Shown: positions 1-10,454, counted from the first letter of the stretch. The stretch: DNA of 64,000 nucleotides from Escherichia coli (GCF_003334815.1 NZ_QOWO01000004.1), one strand, 5' to 3'. Notes: generated by a model not told the origin, from the sequence alone. Numbers and translations: made by a program.

Positions 1-646
1 TGTGCATCATGACAATATCAGGTATAATATAAGATTGTAATCCCATCTTCTTCGCGCGTTCGCACCATTCGATATCAACGAAATCTATAAACAACTCCTC
101 ATCCATAAGCCCGATTTTTTGCAGTACCTCCATTCGAATCAAGCTCCCTGAAGAAATTAGAAAATCTGTTTCAAGTGGATGAACACTATGACACAGCTTG
201 ATTTTATAAAATGGTCTAATATGAATTGCACCTGTTATCTTTCCAGTTTTTTCATCCTTAAAGGCCGGACCTAAAACAGCAACTTGTTTTCCACTATTTA
301 GAAGTACACGCTCATTAATTAGCAATGTTTTAATCATTTCTTCCGGAACGATACTGTCTTGATCCAAAAATAAAATATGAGATGCTTTCGATTTTTTGGC
401 ATAATGAATTCCAATGTTCTGAGCTTTTGCAATGCCTAGATTGTAATTTAGTCGATAATGTTCAATTTTTTCTCCATACGACTCAAACTCAGAATCAGGT
501 ATTTTTAAATTAGACTCATCTGTGTTGTCGATAAGAATAACCTTGTCTACTTGCATAATTATACTTTTCAGTAATCCATGTATGCGTACAATTTCAGGTC
601 TGAAAAGGACCACTACTGCAATAATACATTTATCTTGTTCTGTCAT
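1..646 (-). CDS. Glycosyltransferase family 2, rhamnosyltransferase-like (O-antigen cluster); 3' end beyond window, ATG at 646..644
   Basis: Manual reverse-strand translation from the ATG at 646 gives MTEQDKCIIAVVVLFRPEIV...LIDNTDES...FLDQDSIVP, a GT2-type fold signature. GAGGT RBS directly upstream. Not in the ORF track because it runs off the window edge. Confidence 0.7.
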   Translation of the reverse strand, partial: MTEQDKCIIAVVVLFRPEIVRIHGLLKSIIMQVDKVILIDNTDESNLKIPDSEFESYGEKIEHYRLNYNLGIAKAQNIGIHYAKKSKASHILFLDQDSIVPEEMIKTLLINERVLLNSGKQVAVLGPAFKDEKTGKITGAIHIRPFYKIKLCHSVHPLETDFLISSGSLIRMEVLQKIGLMDEELFIDFVDIEWCERAKKMGLQSYIIPDIVMMH

Positions 647-651
647 GTTTT

Positions 652-1762
652 ACCTCAGGGCAAGGTTACTAAAGCCCGCGCCCCGCAAGGACTGACGCGA
701 GCTAGTCTCTGCCATAGATGTTCTTCTCATCTTACGTGTAAACTCTGTCTTAGATACTTTATGCTTCTTCAAAATATTAAGGCGATATGTCTTATGAATT
801 ATGCCTGGATATAATTCTTATGCATTTCCTCTTCTTATTTTGCTGTCATCTTCATTCATTGCCACATCCAGACACCAGTGCAACTTACTCTCTTGGTGCC
901 AGTGGTTTCGAATCGCTGATATAATATCTGACCGTCATTTCTGGCTCCTTCTTTTGTTCTGCTATTTTTTACCGAAAGTAGTCTGCCACGCAAAATTTTT
1001 TCAGTCCTTTTCATTCAAATGTGAAATCAATAATTTCATTAGGAATATCTAAACAATATGAAGACGGATTTTTTCTCTGTCGCGACTCTTTCAGTAATTA
1101 CGTAACTGTCATGCTTTGGATTACTTAATTCTTTCAGAAGAAAATTTACTCAAAGGCTTTATTAATCCGCCCCTGATTTCCTTTTACTGCGAATAAATAA
1201 TCGACTCCCTGTTTTTGTATCTTTTCTGCAAAATCATTCTGGCACCCCAGCGCATCAGTTGTAATAATTTTTTTTAATATCTAAATGTTAATTAGTTGAG
1301 GGATAGCTGTAATCTCAGTGGATTTCTCATCTGTCTTGATCTGTCAGAGAACAAGACTGAGCATTGTTGAGAACGCTCTAATGACATGAATCGCTTCTTT
1401 GCGGCGAGTTTTTTCATAAGAGTACCGGAGCGTTTTTCGAACTATAGCAATGACGTCTTTTTCATTTGACGAATGGAAATCCCTCATCCAGTTAATAATG
1501 CACTCGTGAAATTTTGCAGGAGTGATACATGATACAATTCTGGCAATGGTAACGAGAACAGGAATACCATTTTCTAAATCACTATATTACTTAAAAAAAC
1601 AAAATATGTCTCACCAAATCCTCTATATCTTCCGAACCTTCTGTACCAAAAATGACGACACAAATAGTCAACAGTAGTATATATGACAATTTATGTTTCC
1701 CTTTTCAGGCTTGTCTGTAATCGGGGATAATAGAAATATATTCCATCAATTTTTAGTACCAT
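652..1762 (-). mobile_element. ISAs1-family (H-repeat-associated) transposase pseudogene, about full length but with multiple stops and frameshifts
   Basis: Reverse-strand translation gives [61 protein letters not shown] and [29 protein letters not shown], matching remembered E. coli H-repeat proteins (YhhI/YdcC type: DTIARVVSCISPAKFHEC...DVIAIDGKTLR...). Reading frame is broken repeatedly; no minus-strand ORF of 60 aa or more in the track here. Confidence 0.7.
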
Positions 1763-1995
1763 TCTGCTCCCCTTATTTTAGCAAGAAGCATTTAAATATA
1801 TATAAGCTATGAAAAACAGTTTAAGTAATGAGGAACACCTCAATTATTGAGCATAAAATGCGAACTATTTACTACAAAAAAGCAGCGTTACGTGATCTTT
1901 CCCTGGGAGACGAACCATTATTTTTTCTATCGGAACTATAATCTTTAATATTTCAGAAAATAAGTTAATAGTCACAATAAGCCTTATATAATATA

Positions 1996-3069
1996 TCAAT
2001 TTTCAAATTCCGTATTGGCACCTTTAAAAATATTTATCAATATTACTTTGGATTCTTCGGTTTGAGATTGAAAATGTGCCAGCACTCTATAATTATTCTC
2101 AACTTTTGTGTATAATTCTTCCATTTTAAGAGGACTACAAAGCTCATCAACTTTAATAAATGAATAGCCTAACGAATTGAAATCACCTATATCAGGAGAT
2201 TTAACAACAGGAACAACACCACATTCAAGGTATTCAATTAATTTTGTCGGGCAGGCAACTCTATTTACAACTATGTCATCTCTTAAAACAAACCCCAAAT
2301 GACATTTAGCCATAACGTTAATTACATCCTCTTTTGGCAATGAATCAACTATTATATCAGTAGCATTAAAACAATTTGCAATTCTACTCTTGAATTCATA
2401 AGTTGAATTTTGTGGGAGAAAAAAATTGAATTTGATATTTTTATTATATGTCCGTTTACTTTCCTCTATCATCAAATCAATATTTTGCCAAGCTTGCATG
2501 CCGCCTGCATAAATGAATTCAAACATATTTGAATTCCATTTGTTCTGATCTACATGGATCTTGTTCTTTTCAAAAATCGGCAATACGATAGATCTTTTGT
2601 CCAAACAGATATGGTATTTATCTTCATAAAACTTTTTCATTGATGAAGTAACATGTATTAATTTAAAACACTTTTGTATTGACATCCTCTCGATTATGTT
2701 ATAAACGAATGCATTTGCTCTTTTACCAAGGAAAATCATTTCCTCAGGAACTACCCCGTGTATATCGAGAATGATCTTTTTATAATCACCAAAAGGAAAA
2801 ATTTTCAACATATTATATACTGAGTGAACATATATTATTGTAGCTTTCTTTAAATATTTAGTTATCGTTAGATTATGTAGAAAATAATTTAGGCTCTCTA
2901 CTTTGCAATTATCGTAAACAGAGATTTTTCTTTTTTTATTTTTTTTAAATGATATATTTAAATAAACCCTCTCCTCATTTTTTGTCAAAGAATCTATTGC
3001 AGCAATTCTTTGAAACATACCATCACGAACATTCTCTGCTGTCGGAAAATCTGCTATAAACAAAATCAT
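1996..3069 (-). CDS. Glycosyltransferase (GT4-like), O-antigen cluster
   Basis: 357 aa ORF; C-terminal CPTKLIEYLECGVVPVV resembles the GT1/GT4 donor-binding motif. Very AT-rich, located inside the rfb cluster. Confidence 0.65.
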   Translation of the reverse strand: MILFIADFPTAENVRDGMFQRIAAIDSLTKNEERVYLNISFKKNKKRKISVYDNCKVESLNYFLHNLTITKYLKKATIIYVHSVYNMLKIFPFGDYKKIILDIHGVVPEEMIFLGKRANAFVYNIIERMSIQKCFKLIHVTSSMKKFYEDKYHICLDKRSIVLPIFEKNKIHVDQNKWNSNMFEFIYAGGMQAWQNIDLMIEESKRTYNKNIKFNFFLPQNSTYEFKSRIANCFNATDIIVDSLPKEDVINVMAKCHLGFVLRDDIVVNRVACPTKLIEYLECGVVPVVKSPDIGDFNSLGYSFIKVDELCSPLKMEELYTKVENNYRVLAHFQSQTEESKVILINIFKGANTEFEN

Positions 3070-3134
3070 ATTACACCACTAATCATATTTCAATGCATTT
3101 ATTAAAATTGCTGATGATATTAATAATCAAAATA

Positions 3135-4271
3135 TTATTTGTTTAAATTATACCAATCAGCCATTATATCTATTATTCGTTTAGATGTTTGACCATCACC
3201 GTATGGATTAGAAGCAGTTGACATTTTTTCATATGCGCCTTTATCGGTCAGCAATAGGTCTAATTCATTAAATATTTTATTTTTATCAGTACCTACTAGT
3301 CTGACCGTACCAGCTGCAACAGCTTCCGGTCGCTCTGTAGTGTTTCTTGTAACTAGTACAGGTTTTCCTAAAGATGGTGCTTCTTCTTGTATACCACCGG
3401 AATCAGTCACAATGATATATGCCTTGTCCATTAAATAAACGAATTGCAAATACTCTAATGGTTCGATAAGGTAGATATTACTTATGCCGCTTAGTATGTC
3501 TTTTACCGGTTTCCGAACTGACGGATTAAGATGTACCGGATACACAAAATTATAATCTTTGAATTTCAATGCTGCGTCACGAATTGCGAAACATATATTA
3601 TCAAAACCAATCCCAAAGTTTTCTCTTCTATGACCTGTTATTAATACAATTCCATTAGCTTTGACATCGAATGGTAGAGTTTTCGCTATTTGTATCTGTA
3701 ATTCTGGCCGTGAACGGATTTTGCTAACAATTGCCATAAGTGCATCAATAACCGTATTACCGACAATATGAATATTTTGTTCAGCTACATTTTCTTTTAA
3801 CAAATTTAATTTTGAGGTCTCTGTTGGAGCAAAGTGCAAATCAGTGATAGCCGCCGTAAGTTTACGATTCCCTTCTTCTGGCCAAGGCGAGTATAAGTCT
3901 CCAGTACGGAGACCTGCTTCTACATGACCGATGCTTACTTGATTATAATATGCAGCAAGGGACGCAGCTAAAGTAGTTGTGGTATCCCCATGAACAAGAA
4001 TCATATCGGGTTTATCTGCTGAAAAGATCACATTTAGCTTGTATAAGATAATGCTAGTCAGCGATACAAGTGTTTGTCCCGGCTTCATTACATTTAAATC
4101 GTAGTCCGGTTTAATTTGGAAAAGTTCTAAAACTTGATCGAGCATTTCACGGTGCTGGCCCGTCACACAAACCTTGCAGCAAAATCTATTATCGCCCTTT
4201 AATTTTTCTATTAAGGGAGCCATTTTTATTGCTTCTGGTCGAGTACCAAATATTAAAAATATCTTTTTCAT
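3135..4271 (-). CDS. UDP-N-acetylglucosamine 2-epimerase (WecB/MnaA family)
   Basis: 378 aa; MKKIFLIFGTRPEAIKMAPLI N-terminus and overall length are typical of non-hydrolysing UDP-GlcNAc 2-epimerases. Confidence 0.9.
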   Translation of the reverse strand: MKKIFLIFGTRPEAIKMAPLIEKLKGDNRFCCKVCVTGQHREMLDQVLELFQIKPDYDLNVMKPGQTLVSLTSIILYKLNVIFSADKPDMILVHGDTTTTLAASLAAYYNQVSIGHVEAGLRTGDLYSPWPEEGNRKLTAAITDLHFAPTETSKLNLLKENVAEQNIHIVGNTVIDALMAIVSKIRSRPELQIQIAKTLPFDVKANGIVLITGHRRENFGIGFDNICFAIRDAALKFKDYNFVYPVHLNPSVRKPVKDILSGISNIYLIEPLEYLQFVYLMDKAYIIVTDSGGIQEEAPSLGKPVLVTRNTTERPEAVAAGTVRLVGTDKNKIFNELDLLLTDKGAYEKMSTASNPYGDGQTSKRIIDIMADWYNLNK

Positions 4272-4282
4272 GTTGAATTTCT

Positions 4283-5560
4283 TTAAATAAGATGTTGATT
4301 TTTGACTTTACTTATATTACTTAGCAACAGTATGCATAAAAGTAGTTCTCCACTTGATATTGCTACCGCTGCACCATAGCCATTATATAAACCGGCAAGT
4401 AATAAAAGAAAAATTACCGTAAAAATAGCAGAATAAATGATACTGCAACTATACATTTTGGCACAACCTGCAGCACTCAGGATTTGAATACCAAGAACAT
4501 TATTTAGAACGCCAAGACACATCCATGGAGCCAATAAGAAGGCAAAAGCCAGAGTTTCTTGTGGTAAATTTACTCTAGGATATATGATCCACCATGCAAG
4601 TATAAAAATCAAACTCACGATCAGACCTAATAGAACTAAGGGACGTCCAGTGCGGATAGCTGACGACATGCCGACATCAAATGATTCCTTAAACTTCCTA
4701 CAACTATGCGGATAAAGTGACTGCGTCAATGGCGAAAATAATGAAACTATAGCTTTAGCTATTCGCTCTACGACTGCATAAATACCTACAACAGATGGTG
4801 TATGGTATATACCAAGAATAAAAACAGCACTGTTTGTTAGCAGTGTTGAGGCAAGTGTTGCTAAAAAATAATCCCATCCTTCCTTAAGGGATACCATCAT
4901 AAATTTTATAGTAGGTAGCATAAAATTTATATATTTTTTTTGAATGATATATATATTAGCATAAACTCCACCAATAAGCACTGGAAACGCTTGGGATAAA
5001 ATAGCAGTACTAATATCACTTTCATTACGAACGAAATATAATACACAGATACATGAGATTATTCGAGATAATATATTAATGACAGCAACTATTTTTAGTT
5101 TTTCTATCCCCTGATAGAACCATAAAGGGTACATCGAATTAGAAAATGCCCATATGAAGGCACTTACAATTATCGTATAATAATTGCTATCATTAACAAA
5201 GACCCTGCATACAATATCTATAATACTAAATAGCAGAAATGTTAAAACAAATTTAACAAAATTAATTGCATAGTATATACGTGATATTTGACAAATATTA
5301 TCTCTACTTTGAGATATAGCTCGACTGGCACTGTAAGCAAATCCATAATCAATGACAACCTGGAAATACGCCATCAATACCAATGCAAATGCATATTTAC
5401 CAAAGCCATCAATGCCCAAGGTTGTTATAAGATGACCTAGCACGATAATTGGTGAAAGATACGCAACACCTTGTGTGCAAAGTAAATATCCAGCATTATA
5501 TATTACATTTTTGTATTCTTTATTTATCAACAAAGAAACCTCTTGCTTAATTTTACTCAC
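4283..5560 (-). CDS. wzx: O-antigen flippase Wzx
   Basis: 425 aa, highly hydrophobic polytopic membrane protein immediately downstream of rmlC; position and composition typical of Wzx. Confidence 0.85.
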   Translation of the reverse strand: MSKIKQEVSLLINKEYKNVIYNAGYLLCTQGVAYLSPIIVLGHLITTLGIDGFGKYAFALVLMAYFQVVIDYGFAYSASRAISQSRDNICQISRIYYAINFVKFVLTFLLFSIIDIVCRVFVNDSNYYTIIVSAFIWAFSNSMYPLWFYQGIEKLKIVAVINILSRIISCICVLYFVRNESDISTAILSQAFPVLIGGVYANIYIIQKKYINFMLPTIKFMMVSLKEGWDYFLATLASTLLTNSAVFILGIYHTPSVVGIYAVVERIAKAIVSLFSPLTQSLYPHSCRKFKESFDVGMSSAIRTGRPLVLLGLIVSLIFILAWWIIYPRVNLPQETLAFAFLLAPWMCLGVLNNVLGIQILSAAGCAKMYSCSIIYSAIFTVIFLLLLAGLYNGYGAAVAISSGELLLCILLLSNISKVKNQHLI

Positions 5561-6090
5561 CTGTAAAGAAATGGTTGCTTAGAGTCTTTCTCTGATACAA
5601 TAGGCTCATTAATTAGTGGCCAATCTATTTTTATATCTGGATCATGCCAGGCCAAACCACGATCACTGGTTGGAGCATAATAATTCGTCGTCTTATACAA
5701 AAACTCTGCCGTTTCACTCAGCACCAAAAACCCATGCGCAAATCCTTCTGGTATCCACAACTGGCGCTTATTCTCAGCAGATAAATTCACCCCAACCCAT
5801 TTGCCAAAAGTTGGTGACGATTTACGAATATCAACCGCTACGTCAAAAACTTCACCAACAACGCAGCGCACCAACTTTCCTTGTGCATAAGGTTCTAACT
5901 GATAATGCAGTCCGCGTAAAACACCTTTACAAGACTTCGAATGGTTATCCTGGACAAATTCAACTTTGCGGCCTACAGCTTCCTCAAAAACCTTCTGGTT
6001 AAAGCTCTCGAAAAAGAAACCGCGCTCGTCACCAAAAACTTTCGGTTCGAAAATTAATACGTCTGGAATCTCTGTTTTAATTACGTTCAT
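5557..6090 (-). CDS. rfbC: dTDP-4-dehydrorhamnose 3,5-epimerase
   Basis: 177 aa; MNVIKTEIPDVLIFEPKVFGDERGFF is the RmlC signature; 4-bp overlap with wzx. Confidence 0.95.
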   Translation of the reverse strand: MNVIKTEIPDVLIFEPKVFGDERGFFFESFNQKVFEEAVGRKVEFVQDNHSKSCKGVLRGLHYQLEPYAQGKLVRCVVGEVFDVAVDIRKSSPTFGKWVGVNLSAENKRQLWIPEGFAHGFLVLSETAEFLYKTTNYYAPTSDRGLAWHDPDIKIDWPLINEPIVSEKDSKQPFLYR

Positions 6091-6094
6091 TTTA

Positions 6095-6973
6095 TTAATA
6101 ACCTTTAATCATTTTTAGCAGGTACTGACCATAAGCATTTTTCTTCAACGGTTCAGCTAATATTTTCACCTGCTCAGCATTGATAAACCCTTTACGGTAA
6201 GCAATTTCTTCTGGACAGGAAACTTTCAACCCTTGACGCTCTTCAATTGTAGCAATGAAGTTGCTTGCCTCAATCAGGCTTTGATGTGTCCCCGTGTCTA
6301 ACCATGCATATCCACGTCCCATCATGGCAACAGATAAACGCCCTTGTTCCATGTAGATACGGTTAATATCGGTAATTTCCAGTTCACCGCGGGCAGAAGG
6401 CTTAAGATTTTTCGCCATTTCTACAACGTCGTTATCATAGAAATAAAGCCCAGTTACCGCATAATTACTTTTTGGCTGTAGCGGTTTTTCTTCCAGGCTA
6501 ATTGCCGTACCGTTTTTATCAAACTCAACGACACCATAGCGTTCAGGATCATTAACGTGATAGGCAAACACCGTTGCACCACTTTCTTTGTTAACAGCGG
6601 CATCCATTAACTTCGGCAGATCGTGACCGTAAAAAATATTATCACCAAGAACCAAAGCACAATCATCACCACCGATAAATTCTTCACCGATGATAAATGC
6701 TTGCGCAAGACCATCTGGACTTGGTTGCACTTTGTACTGAAGATTCAGGCCCCACTGGCTCCCGTCACCCAACAGTTGTTGAAAACGAGGAGTATCCTGT
6801 GGCGTACTTATAATTAGAATATCGCGAATACCCGCCAACATCAGTGTAGAGAGCGGATAATAGATCATCGGTTTATCATAAATAGGTAATAGCTGTTTAC
6901 TGACAGCCATAGTCACAGGATAAAGACGTGTACCAGAACCACCCGCTAAAATAATACCTTTACGCGTTTTCAT
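6095..6973 (-). CDS. rfbA: Glucose-1-phosphate thymidylyltransferase
   Basis: 292 aa; [16 protein letters not shown] nucleotidyltransferase motif; synteny rmlBDAC. Confidence 0.95.
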
Positions 6974-7030
6974 TCCATCATTCCTTTTAATTCATCTTGT
7001 TCCACCATCACGAACAAGATACAAAAACTA

Positions 7031-7930
7031 TTAAATTGCTGTAGTCGTAAATAATTCGTTGAGCATGCGTTTCACACCAACCTGCCAGTCAGGCAAAACA
7101 AGCGCAAAGTTCTGCTGAAATTTTTCTGTATTAAGGCGAGAGTTATGCGGACGACGAGCTGGTGTAGGATAGGCTGTTGTTGATACTGCGTTGAGCTTGT
7201 TGAGTGCAAGGGGAATGCCTGCTTTGCGCGCCTCTTCAAAAACCAGCGCAGCATAATCGTGCCAGGTTGTGGTACCACTGGCTACCAGATGGTACAAGCC
7301 TGCGACTTCTGGTTTATTCAGTGCCACACGAATTGCATGTGCCGTACAATCAGCCAGCAGTTCAGCACCTGTTGGCGCACCAAACTGATCATTAATAACG
7401 GCTAATTCTTCACGCTCTTTTGCCAGACGCAACATCGTTTTGGCGAAGTTATTTCCTTTACCTGCATAGACCCAGCTGGTACGGAAAATTAGGTGCTTCG
7501 CACAATGCTCTTGTAATGCTTTTTCTCCAGCTAACTTGGTTTCACCGTAAACATTTAGCGGTGCGGTTGCATCCGCCTCCTGCCATGGTATTTCACCGGT
7601 CCCCGGAAATACGTAGTCAGTTGAGTAATGAATTACCCAGGCCCCAACTTCATTAGCCGCTTTTGCAATTGATTCAACGCTGGTCGCATTGAGTAATTGT
7701 GCAAATTCGGGTTCTGACTCAGCCTTATCTACTGCGGTATGAGCCGCAGCATTAACAATAACATCAGGGCGAATTTTTTTGACGGTTTCAGCTACACCTT
7801 CAGGATTACTAAAATCACCACAATAATCAGTGGAGTGAACATCAAGAGCAATCAAATTACCCAAAGGTGCCAGAGCACGCTGTAGTTCCCAACCGACCTG
7901 CCCTGTTTTGCCGAAAAGGAGAATATTCAT
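7031..7930 (-). CDS. rfbD: dTDP-4-dehydrorhamnose reductase
   Basis: 299 aa; [21 protein letters not shown]-terminus typical of RmlD. Confidence 0.95.
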   Translation of the reverse strand: MNILLFGKTGQVGWELQRALAPLGNLIALDVHSTDYCGDFSNPEGVAETVKKIRPDVIVNAAAHTAVDKAESEPEFAQLLNATSVESIAKAANEVGAWVIHYSTDYVFPGTGEIPWQEADATAPLNVYGETKLAGEKALQEHCAKHLIFRTSWVYAGKGNNFAKTMLRLAKEREELAVINDQFGAPTGAELLADCTAHAIRVALNKPEVAGLYHLVASGTTTWHDYAALVFEEARKAGIPLALNKLNAVSTTAYPTPARRPHNSRLNTEKFQQNFALVLPDWQVGVKRMLNELFTTTAI

Positions 7931-9015
7931 TACTGGCGGCCCTCATAGTTCTGTTCAATCCACGATTGATAAGCACCACTTTTCACATTATCAACCCATT
8001 TTGTATTGGACAGGTACCATTCCACCGTTTTACGAATCCCGCTCTCAAACGTTTCCTGCGGTTTCCAGCCCAATTCGCGGCTAATCTTCTCTGCATCAAT
8101 CGCATAACGGCGATCGTGTCCCGGGCGATCGGCAACATAAGTAATTTGCTCACGGTAAGATTTCTCTTTCGGTACAATCTCATCCAACAAATCACAAATA
8201 GTGAGCACTACATCGATGTTTTTCTTTTCGTTGTGTCCACCAATGTTATAAGTTTCACCCGCTTTACCTTCGGTTACGACGATATATAACGCACGCGCAT
8301 GATCTTCAACATACAGCCAGTCACGAATTTGATCCCCTTTGCCATAAATAGGTAATGCCTTACCTTCCAGAGCATTAAGAATTACTAGTGGAATCAATTT
8401 TTCCGGAAAGTGATAAGGACCGTAGTTATTCGAACAGTTAGTCACAATGGTCGGTAAACCATAGGTACGTTTCCACGCACGGACTAAATGATCGCTGGAT
8501 GCTTTTGATGCGGAATAAGGACTACTAGGCGCGTAAGCTGTCGTCTCAGTAAAGAGGGGTAATTGTTCTTTATTATTTACTTCGTCAGGATGAGGCAGAT
8601 CGCCATAGACTTCGTCAGTAGAAATATGATGAAAACGGAAGCTATTTTTCTTGTCGCCATCAAGAGCAGACCAGTAATTGCGAGCCGCTTCCAAAAGGAC
8701 ATAAGTACCAACAATATTGGTTTCAATAAATGCCGCAGGGCCTGTAATTGAACGATCCACATGGCTTTCAGCAGCCAGGTGCATCACTGCATCCGGCTGA
8801 TGCTGAGCAAAAATCCGCGCCATTGCAGCAGCATCGCAAATATCCGCATGTTCAAAAACATAGCGTTCAGAATCAGAAACATCAGCAAGTGATTCCAGGT
8901 TTCCGGCGTACGTTAATTTATCGACATTAACAACACTATCCTGCGTATTATTTATAATGTGACGAACTACTGCAGAACCAATAAATCCTGCGCCACCAGT
9001 AACAAGTATCTTCAC
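7930..9015 (-). CDS. rfbB: dTDP-glucose 4,6-dehydratase
   Basis: 361 aa; [20 protein letters not shown]ossmann N-terminus; first gene of the rfb operon. Confidence 0.95.
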
Positions 9016-9083
9016 TTTTTTATTCCATATTACTTCAGAGCATGCTGTGAAATTAGCGGCTCTTAGTTTGATTAATAGAGGTA

Positions 9084-9125
9084 TTAATGCACGCTACCGC
9101 CCCTGGCTTTACAGCTACCAGAGCA
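9084..9125 (-). promoter_or_regulatory. JUMPstart element with ops (RfaH antitermination site) upstream of rfbB
   Basis: Forward cacgctaccgcc at 9090..9101 is the reverse complement of ops GGCGGTAGCGTG; the same 30-nt motif recurs upstream of wza at 33630. Confidence 0.8.
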
Positions 9126-9386
9126 CTGCATGCATGCCTACGATGTAGCGAGCGTTACCCACTCGCGCTTAACCCGAAAAATTCAAACGCTAATTGTCTT
9201 ACCAATTCGCCCTGGAAACAAGGAAAATCCTGGAAAACTTTGACTAAAATCCTATTGCTAACTCGTTGTTATTCTGATTGTTTATATAAAACAACGGCAG
9301 GAATATTCGCAACAAATTACTTTCGCCACGAATCTTCACTGCCGTTATAATTTTCTTATCAACCGTTACATCCGGTCAGATTTTCA

Positions 9387-10280
9387 TTATTCGCTTAACA
9401 GTTTCTCAATACCTTTACGGAACTTCGCCCCTTCTTTCAGGTTGCGTAGTCCATACTTCACAAATGCCTGCATATAGCCCATTTTTTTACCGCAGTCGTA
9501 GCTGTCACCAGTCATCAGCATTGCATCAACAGACTGTTTTTTCGCCAGTTCGGCAATGGCATCTGTCAGTTGGATACGTCCCCATGCACCTGGCTGAGTG
9601 CGTTCAAGTTCCGGCCAAATATCTGCAGAAAGCACATAGCGACCAACGGCCATGATGTCTGAGTCCAGCGTCTGCGGCTGATCCGGTTTTTCGATAAATT
9701 CAACAATGCGGCTGACTTTACCTTCACGATCCAGTGGTTCTTTGGTCTGAATAACGGAGTATTCAGAGAGGTCACCCGGCATACGTTTTGCCAGCACCTG
9801 GCTACGGCCCGTTTCATTGAAACGCGCAATCATGGCAGCAAGGTTGTAACGCAGCGGATCGGCACTGGCGTCGTCGATCACAACGTCTGGCAGCACCACG
9901 ACAAATGGGTTGTCACCAATGGCGGGTCGTGCACACAAAATGGAGTGACCTAAACCTAAAGGTTCGCCCTGACGTACGTTCATAATGGTCACGCCCGGCG
10001 GGCAGATGGACTGAACTTCCGCCAGTAGTTGACGCTTCACGCGCAGTTCAAGAAGAGATTCTAATTCATAAGAGGTGTCGAAGTGGTTTTCGACCGCGTT
10101 CTTGGACGCGTGAGTTACCAGGAGGATTTCTTTGATACCTGCAGCCACAATCTCGTCAACAATGTACTGAATCATTGGCTTGTCGACGATCGGTAGCATC
10201 TCTTTGGGAATCGCCTTAGTGGCAGGCAACATATGCATCCCAAGACCCGCTACAGGAATAACTGCTTTTAAATTCGTCAT
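9387..10280 (-). CDS. galF: UTP-glucose-1-phosphate uridylyltransferase subunit GalF
   Basis: ORF track gives 301 aa from 10292; conserved start [22 protein letters not shown] at 10280 gives 297 aa; GalU/GalF family. Confidence 0.95.
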
Positions 10281-10454
10281 TATTTCATCCACCTGTAAAA
10301 TGGTTGCTGAATTATAGCTTGTTCGATTTTTTTCGCCAGCATCAATTACCCTGAATTGATTACTGAATTACTTGTGATGTTACGCCGCTTCGTTGTGGAT
10401 TGCAGTAGCATTGTTCCTAAGTATGGCTCCATTTTTCCAGGAATGGTCGCAAAT

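Follow-up and report, generated by a model that had tools for sequence, protein, structure and literature searches.

An Escherichia coli O-antigen gene cluster that fits the A47-type O1 non-A variant and combines OgN10-like with O10-like genes

In Escherichia coli serogroup O1, the epitope is beta-N-acetylmannosamine (ManNAc) on rhamnose (Rha) (PMC5293828). The closest described relative of the gene cluster for O antigen considered here is that of A47, an O1 non-A reference strain, which came from pig faeces and has the serotype O1:[H21] (GenBank KY115226; Delannoy et al. 2017, PMC5293828). A47 agglutinates with O1 antiserum and is positive in the wzxO1non-A quantitative PCR (qPCR). Its cluster comprises 12 open reading frames (ORFs) in about 16 kb: a seven-gene O1-variant module that includes wzx, a four-gene O10-related module that includes wzy, and a last gene like wekS of O2 (PMC5293828). 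Two other cluster types belong to the same serogroup. These are OgN10 (Iguchi et al. 2016), which is the O1non-A of CB11070, CB13533 and CB14293, and Og1 or O1A, with the reference G1632/U5-41. Here, we analyse the start of a 64,000-nucleotide stretch of E. coli DNA (GCF_003334815.1, NZ_QOWO01000004.1), referred to below as the window. With a probability of roughly 0.92, positions 1-9015 represent the 5' two-thirds of a Wzx/Wzy-dependent O-antigen cluster that fits the A47-type O1 non-A variant. The cluster has been in the literature since 2017. Our additions are relics of insertion sequences (ISs) at the module borders, a reading of the mosaic that involves two parents, and a tentative link to the O1C structure.

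All genes in positions 1-9015 are on the minus strand. The order is rmlBDAC, wzx, mnaA, a gene for a 357-amino-acid glycosyltransferase (GT), a relic of an ISAs1-family element, and a partial GT2 gene. Transcription of the cluster runs from galF (9387-10292, minus strand) towards gnd, with every gene on the same strand. The flippase gene wzx, of the O1 non-A type (4283-5560, minus strand), is recognised by Pfam Polysacc_synt (8.7e-39) and its product has about 10 hydrophobic segments. It is followed by mnaA, a wecB paralogue (3135-4271, minus strand; TIGR00236 wecB, 503 bits against a cut-off of 210), for the epimerase that converts uridine diphosphate-N-acetylglucosamine (UDP-GlcNAc) to UDP-ManNAc. 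The 357-residue protein (1996-3069, minus strand) is a GT-B glycosyltransferase, judging by homologue domains and an AlphaFold fold, and a putative ManNAc side-branch transferase. Finally, the window edge cuts an O10-like gene for a GT2 rhamnosyltransferase (TIGR01556), so that the first 215 of 306 codons are present (1-646, minus strand). This gene content had been described in an initial annotation, made from the sequence alone, and both family profiles and ORF positions agree with it; the IS event that it mentions, without a position, corresponds to the ISAs1 relic. The same annotation held that the cluster is not that of K-12 O16. Indeed, neither glf nor the wbbH-L set is found in the cluster, and an O16 identity was ruled out by per-gene identities and by published diagnostic primers and probes. 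The AT-richness noted for 1-5560 is also confirmed. The GC content of this segment is 0.337, compared with 0.42-0.47 in the rml genes and 0.53 in the flanking wca/colanic-acid and core genes; O-antigen clusters typically have a low GC content (PMC7685785). Similarly, the suggestion of an O1-like unit containing Rha and ManNAc fits the A47 variant, given its O1 agglutination and epitope. What had been overlooked is the mosaic nature of the cluster, the 3' half of which is O10-like, not O1-like.

Positions 1-9015 are fully covered, at 99.1-100% identity, in nine of 5,426 complete E. coli genomes (megablast). Hence, the A47-type cluster is rare. The nine carriers are from humans, cattle and wastewater. 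Because the window stops within the cluster, the O10-like genes past the first GT2 were read from one of these genomes, LR-21-1, and not from the window itself. The LR-21-1 locus (L001; window position equals L001 position minus 14000) is 100% identical over 1-9015. Note that annotation past the window edge is taken from LR-21-1 only, and that the other eight genomes were compared by nucleotide match. Viewed in this way, the cluster has twelve ORFs and measures 15.3 kb from galF to gnd, compared with the published figure of about 16 kb for A47. By the published description, the A47 cluster has the same gene order: rmlBDAC, wzx, mnaA, GT, four O10-like genes including wzy, and wekS.

Nucleotide identities to the putative source clusters also reproduce those published for A47. 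Briefly, wzx is 89.3% identical to O1 non-A wzx (89.1-89.2% for A47) and wzy is 89.2% identical to that of O10 (89% for A47). The GT genes flanking wzy are 90.6-93.5% identical to O10 (GT2 90.6%, GT 92.9% and GT4 93.5%; 90-94% for A47), and the final ORF has 91.1% identity to wekS of O2 (91% for A47). Furthermore, the Wzx, Wzy and 357-residue GT proteins are identical to three adjacent UniProt entries from 2017 (A0A1S6PTH9, A0A1S6PTG4 and A0A1S6PTF9). We infer that these entries derive from KY115226. The Wzx entry, A0A1S6PTH9, is named 'Putative O-antigen transporter', and one member of the Wzy protein cluster is labelled 'Escherichia coli O1'. Inside wzx, the forward primer of the wzxO1non-A qPCR matches exactly at 4665-4686, and the probe matches at 4640-4663 with two mismatches. 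The 'reverse' primer printed in PMC5293828 maps to 4581-4610 (minus strand), with three mismatches. This is also the strand of the forward primer, so that the printed sequence has the sense orientation.

The initial annotation also reported that there is no wzy in the window, and considered that the gene may lie beyond the edge or have been lost to the IS event. As stated, wzy is missing: a six-frame scan of 1-4282 found no stop-free stretch of at least 60 amino acids with at least two hydrophobic segments. In LR-21-1, the edge is followed by the remainder of GT2, wzy (347 amino acids), a second GT2 (311 amino acids), a GT4 (376 amino acids), a short pseudogene, a lipoteichoic acid (LTA)-synthase-family gene and, 5.9 kb past the edge, gnd. 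The complete first GT2 gene (L001:13726-14646, 306 amino acids) scores 231 bits with TIGR01556 (cut-off 201). The wzy gene belongs to the EpsG family (Pfam EpsG, 1.5e-34), lies at L001:12604-13647, which is 353-1396 bp past window position 1, and encodes a polytopic protein with about 10-12 hydrophobic segments. All nine genomes that share positions 1-9015 match the LR-21-1 continuation to gnd at 99.1% or more. These observations support a location beyond the window. Conversely, they do not support loss of wzy to the IS event, since the ISAs1 relic sits between two intact genes. By strong extrapolation, the absence of wzy from the window is probably an effect of where the window ends.

Alternative identities must be weighed against this assignment. 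One is that the cluster is OgN10, the O1 variant common among strains that produce Shiga toxin (O1:H20 and its relatives). The 3' half would then consist of the OgN10 genes for Wzy, GT2 and GT4. Our OgN10/O1 non-A locus (L002) was recognised by its exact match to the wzxO1non-A probe and by both OgN10 wzy primers (Iguchi et al.), which give the published 892-bp amplicon. The 5' genes are compatible with an OgN10 identity. From rmlB to the 357-residue GT gene, nucleotide identity to L002 is 88-96%, with 88-89% for rmlC, wzx, mnaA and the GT gene (89.3% for wzx), and about 89% for the OgN10-like module overall. Across 1915-9400, the window is 91% identical to OgN10-type clusters such as L002, and the exact forward qPCR primer match points the same way. 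OgN10 presumably also has the ManNAc branch. However, beyond the relic, all genomes that share positions 1-9015 carry O10-like genes. The GT2 gene at 1-646 is 90.6% identical to the O10 gene in nucleotide sequence, but its product is only 34% identical to the OgN10 GT2 in amino acid sequence. Wzy is 27% identical to OgN10 Wzy, compared with 85% to O10 Wzy, and the wzy primers OgN10_PCR_F and OgN10_PCR_R match only L002, being absent from L001. The 3' half of OgN10 has wzy, GT2 and GT4, giving three GTs in all, and its products are 26-34% identical to those here; the present cluster has GT2, wzy, GT2, GT4 and wekS, with four GTs in all. Since 1-646 is O10-like, the OgN10 reading is refuted for the part inside the window, and we regard it as very improbable overall. 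The O10 (Og10) cluster has GT2, wzy, GT2 and GT4 in the same order as here, at 89-94% nucleotide identity, and a gnd-adjacent wekS-like gene that is 92% identical. The 3' part, L001:10208-14655 (window -3792 to 655), shares 89.7% identity with O10 clusters, whose wzy bears the name 'O10 family O-antigen polymerase' in the Prokaryotic Genome Annotation Pipeline (PGAP). As an identity for the whole cluster, O10 was ruled out by per-gene identities, its own Wzx being 25% identical in amino acid sequence. Classical O1A (Og1), the cluster found in O1:K1 strains that are extraintestinal or avian pathogens, has the identical 5' gene order, rmlBDAC, wzx, mnaA and GT, with mnaA paired with a homologous GT gene. 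For comparison we used a locus (L008) with an exact match to the wzyO1A probe, which was found only there. Amino acid identities to L008 are just 42% for Wzx (61% at the nucleotide level), 60% for MnaA, 48% for the GT and 29% for Wzy. In addition, Og1 has a DUF1972-type GT, fitting a Rha3 backbone without galactose (Gal). By these identities the Og1 reading is refuted, and we assign it a negligible probability.

A different kind of alternative is that the cluster is degraded and non-functional, in a rough or semi-rough strain, because insertion of ISAs1 deleted wzy and the transferases further downstream, or shut off their expression. A non-coding stretch of 1.35 kb (647-1995, with no ORF longer than 83 amino acids), which is mostly IS relic, does interrupt the operon. 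Secondary damage is also present in carriers, with an IS5 insertion in one genome (G5) and a truncated, 271-amino-acid GT in another. However, the IS has both ends and sits between genes, the genes that flank it are intact in LR-21-1, and the eight further genomes match at 99.1% or more. There is no convincing terminator in the relic (seven terminator-like sites, with 6.3 expected by chance), and an operon polarity suppressor (ops) element precedes the operon. Exact wzx is found on 139 contigs and exact wzy on 127 contigs of a large protein collection; these similar counts suggest that the two cluster halves are maintained together. Finally, the type strain A47 agglutinates as O1 (PMC5293828). 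We therefore leave degradation only a slight chance, noting that damaged copies in some carriers mean that expression in any given strain is not guaranteed. Such damage is one of several points that weigh against the A47-type assignment or its details. The identity with A47 rests on matched published percentages and three exact protein matches. The window ends inside the cluster, making wzy in this genome an extrapolation from other genomes. Nor is the window from LR-21-1, to which it is only 97-99% identical outside the cluster. Regarding the product, the sugar assignments of individual GTs are putative. Last, the 357-residue GT resembles retaining GT4 enzymes, yet formation of beta-ManNAc from UDP-alpha-ManNAc requires inversion.

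Under the A47-type assignment, the junction between the two modules coincides with the ISAs1 relic. This is a decayed full-length element of 1.25 kb (656-1906, minus strand), with both CAGGG termini and a broken transposase frame. Its alignment with intact ISAs1 copies runs over the full length at 82% identity (1071/1299 columns), and it is labelled 'frameshifted; internal stop' by PGAP in LR-21-1. Homology to O10 ends at window position 655, abutting the relic, and homology to OgN10 begins at 1915, eight bases past the other IS end. ISAs1-family elements normally make duplications of 8-10 bp. Here, the 8-base sequences on the two sides of the relic, TTTTACCT and GAGACGAA, are not the same, and a target-site duplication is therefore lacking. 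Hence, the site looks like a recombination joint and not like a simple insertion. A second ISAs1 fragment, of 149 bp, is located between the GT4 and wekS-like genes (L001:10057-10205). ISAs1 relics thus mark both module borders. In four O10-type loci, of which three are intact O10 clusters and the fourth is a truncated O10-like one, the order is GT4, hexapeptide acetyltransferase, ISAs1, wekS-like gene and gnd. Inheritance of the relic at the same site from an O10-like parent was rejected, because these four loci have ISAs1 only between GT4/acetyltransferase and wekS.

In the A47 paper, the cluster is divided into three modules, each with its own donor (O1, O10 or O2), and ISAs1 relics are unmentioned. 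Our reading differs, with relics at both borders and wekS colinear with O10. The wekS-like gene is 92.4% identical to that of O10 strain LD39-1, compared with 91.1% to that of an O2:K1:H4 locus (L004). Furthermore, the stretch between gnd and the start of the first GT2 gene is colinear with O10, except for the deleted acetyltransferase gene and the loss of most of the IS. With this colinearity including wekS, a pair of parents, O10-like and OgN10-like, would suffice, and a third, O2 donor would be unnecessary. The mosaic is best explained by one crossover in the shared rml genes and another at an ISAs1 copy, with the O10 acetyltransferase gene and most of the second ISAs1 lost later. The crossover on the rml side cannot be placed more precisely because rmlBDA are 92-98% identical to all candidate parents and are themselves mosaic. 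For the same reason, assigning rmlBDA to one parent by sliding-window identity was uninformative. Note that wzx would have come with the branch-sugar genes and wzy with the backbone transferases, which is a notable partition. Together with the relic at the exact junction, it is a modest refinement of the published picture.

The transferase likely to determine the O1 epitope is the 357-residue GT. The initial annotation had labelled this gene as GT4, and that label stands by fold but not by direct sequence match: Pfam matches to GT4 and GT1 were not significant (E values of 0.03 and 0.29). Similarly, there was no NCBIfam match, and a profile of 37 homologues gave no sequence match in the PDB. 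The homologues carry GT4/GT1 domains, with Glyco_transf_4 (PF13439) matched by 16 of the 37. Because sequence profiles gave no PDB match, we turned to fold comparison. An AlphaFold model (predicted local distance difference test, pLDDT, 92.7; predicted template modelling score, pTM, 0.89) has the two-Rossmann GT-B fold. With Foldseek, the structures closest to this model are the retaining GT4 enzymes BshA, MshA, GlgM and WaaG (E values from 4e-13 to 1e-9; template modelling scores of 0.6-0.69). A homologue adjoins mnaA in three O1-type clusters, namely the present one, OgN10 (87% amino acid identity) and Og1 (48%). By elimination, and by this pairing with mnaA, the protein is probably the beta-ManNAc side-branch transferase. 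The retaining-type fold suggested by the model is in small tension with the inverting linkage. We also observed that the GT4 EX7E motif seemingly lacks its first glutamate: E279 is invariant, with no glutamate eight residues before it.

A biosynthetic scheme can be proposed, for which only protein families were tested and the steps follow established knowledge of Wzx/Wzy systems. WecA, encoded elsewhere, would start the unit on undecaprenyl-pyrophosphate-linked GlcNAc (Und-PP-GlcNAc). RmlBDAC would supply deoxythymidine diphosphate-L-rhamnose (dTDP-L-Rha), and the O10-like GT4 and two GT2 enzymes would use it, together with UDP-Gal, to assemble a Gal-Rha-Rha backbone. MnaA would provide UDP-ManNAc, from which the 357-residue GT would add the beta-ManNAc side branch that forms the O1 epitope. 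The unit would then be flipped by the O1-type Wzx and polymerised by the O10-type Wzy, leaving WzzB and WaaL to finish the process. Among the O1A, O1B and O1C structures tabulated in PMC11148006 (Table 1), the O1B and O1C units both read [beta-ManNAc-(1->2)]-Rha-Rha-alpha-Gal-(1->3)-beta-GlcNAc; what distinguishes them is the linkage to Gal. With WecA, the four transferases of the cluster (GT4, a pair of GT2 enzymes of which one belongs to a rhamnosyltransferase family, and the 357-residue GT) fit this five-sugar unit. The predicted composition of the product is therefore that of O1B/O1C: Rha2, Gal, GlcNAc and ManNAc. The alpha-Gal step suits a retaining GT4, and the two alpha-L-Rha steps suit GT2 enzymes, which are inverting; this leaves the 357-residue GT for the ManNAc branch.

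Cattle strains described as 'O1B type' are OgN10 (Iguchi et al.), and OgN10 has only three GTs. In O1B, the two rhamnosyl linkages are identical (alpha-1,2) and one enzyme could make both, whereas those required for O1C differ from each other. The O10 backbone reportedly contains Rha-(1->3)-Gal-(1->3)-GlcNAc, as does O1C. On these grounds, we lean slightly towards O1C, over O1B, as the structure encoded by the present cluster. Our literature search found neither the O10 repeat-unit structure nor an O1C gene cluster assignment.

The genes that O10 does not share with the present cluster are rffA, for a dTDP-4-amino-4,6-dideoxygalactose (dTDP-Fuc4N) transaminase, its own wzx, a gene for a 303-residue protein, and the hexapeptide acetyltransferase gene. 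Relative to O10, wzx, mnaA and the 357-residue GT gene replace O10 genes in the present cluster, and the acetyltransferase gene is deleted. This O10 gene set would fit a side branch of N-acetylated Fuc4N (Fuc4NAc). The 303-residue protein (L003:15266-16177) is encoded between wzx and GT2, in the slot that the 357-residue GT gene occupies here. It has no NCBIfam match and, by position, is a candidate Fuc4NAc branch transferase. A broader idea can be offered only tentatively. A side-branch cassette, consisting of the branch-sugar synthesis gene, the branch transferase gene and a matched wzx, may have been swapped into a chassis of O10-like backbone genes plus wzy. The O10 branch, Fuc4NAc, would have given way to the O1 branch, ManNAc, turning O10 into an O1 subtype, most likely O1C. 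The 357-residue GT would then represent an unrecognised family of GT4-like, inverting beta-ManNAc transferases.

That wzx is of the O1 non-A type and wzy is O10-like matters for typing. Schemes based on wzy would likely miss the cluster or call it O10-like. With wzx the call would be O1 non-A, and the serological result is O1. No Og designation for the A47 type was found in our literature search. Overall, the cluster is a tidy, already published case of O-antigen diversification by recombination between clusters, and resolves no open question.

The rml genes were called with curated NCBIfam cut-offs, and all four exceed them. They are rmlB (rfbB; 7930-9015, minus strand), for dTDP-glucose 4,6-dehydratase (NF007490, 797 bits, cut-off 649; also the PGAP name in LR-21-1); rmlD (rfbD; 7031-7930, minus strand), for dTDP-4-dehydrorhamnose reductase (NF007440, 657 bits, cut-off 308); rmlA (rfbA; 6095-6973, minus strand), for glucose-1-phosphate thymidylyltransferase (NF012024, 678 bits, cut-off 588); and rmlC (rfbC; 5557-6090, minus strand), for dTDP-4-dehydrorhamnose 3,5-epimerase (TIGR01221, 292 bits, cut-off 156). 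At the nucleotide level, rmlC is 88% identical to OgN10 and 72% identical to O10. By sliding-window identity, serogroup-specific sequence starts inside this gene, at about 5800-6000. The 200-bp bin at 5800-5999 is 95% identical to Og1 (O1A), compared with 84% to OgN10, which is the opposite of adjacent bins and points to a further small mosaic patch.

JUMPStart/ops sequences are known in rfb operons. In the spacer between galF and rmlB, 79 bp upstream of the rmlB start codon, is an exact match to the ops element, GGCGGTAG (9094-9101, minus strand). This would be the expected signal for RfaH-dependent read-through of the operon. The same 8-mer occurs nine times in the window, compared with 1.5 copies expected from shuffles. 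The copies lie at 9094, 20875, 33634, 34221, 45217, 52686, 53196, 58496 and 63547; that at 9094 is the one placed upstream of rmlB.

At the other end of the cluster, the wekS-like gene encodes a membrane protein of the LTA-synthase/sulfatase family. It adjoins gnd in A47-type, O10 and O2 clusters, always beside ISAs1 copies (L001:8233-9741; L003:6656-8236; L004:14132-15760; L006:9131-10750). For LR-21-1, PGAP gives a product of 502 amino acids; its reading frame, however, is already open at the MNFM start that the versions of 539-542 amino acids have.

Outside the cluster, two segments of the window, 47260-48044 and 61552-62331 (about 780 bp each), have no megablast alignment to LR-21-1, and their flanks align at 97-98%. 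Insertions were rejected as an explanation, since the two are mutually dissimilar and neither recurs at another place in the window. They appear instead to be locally divergent segments. By LR-21-1 coordinates, 47260-48044 falls in the pphC/yegI region and 61552-62331 lies between yegP and yegQ.

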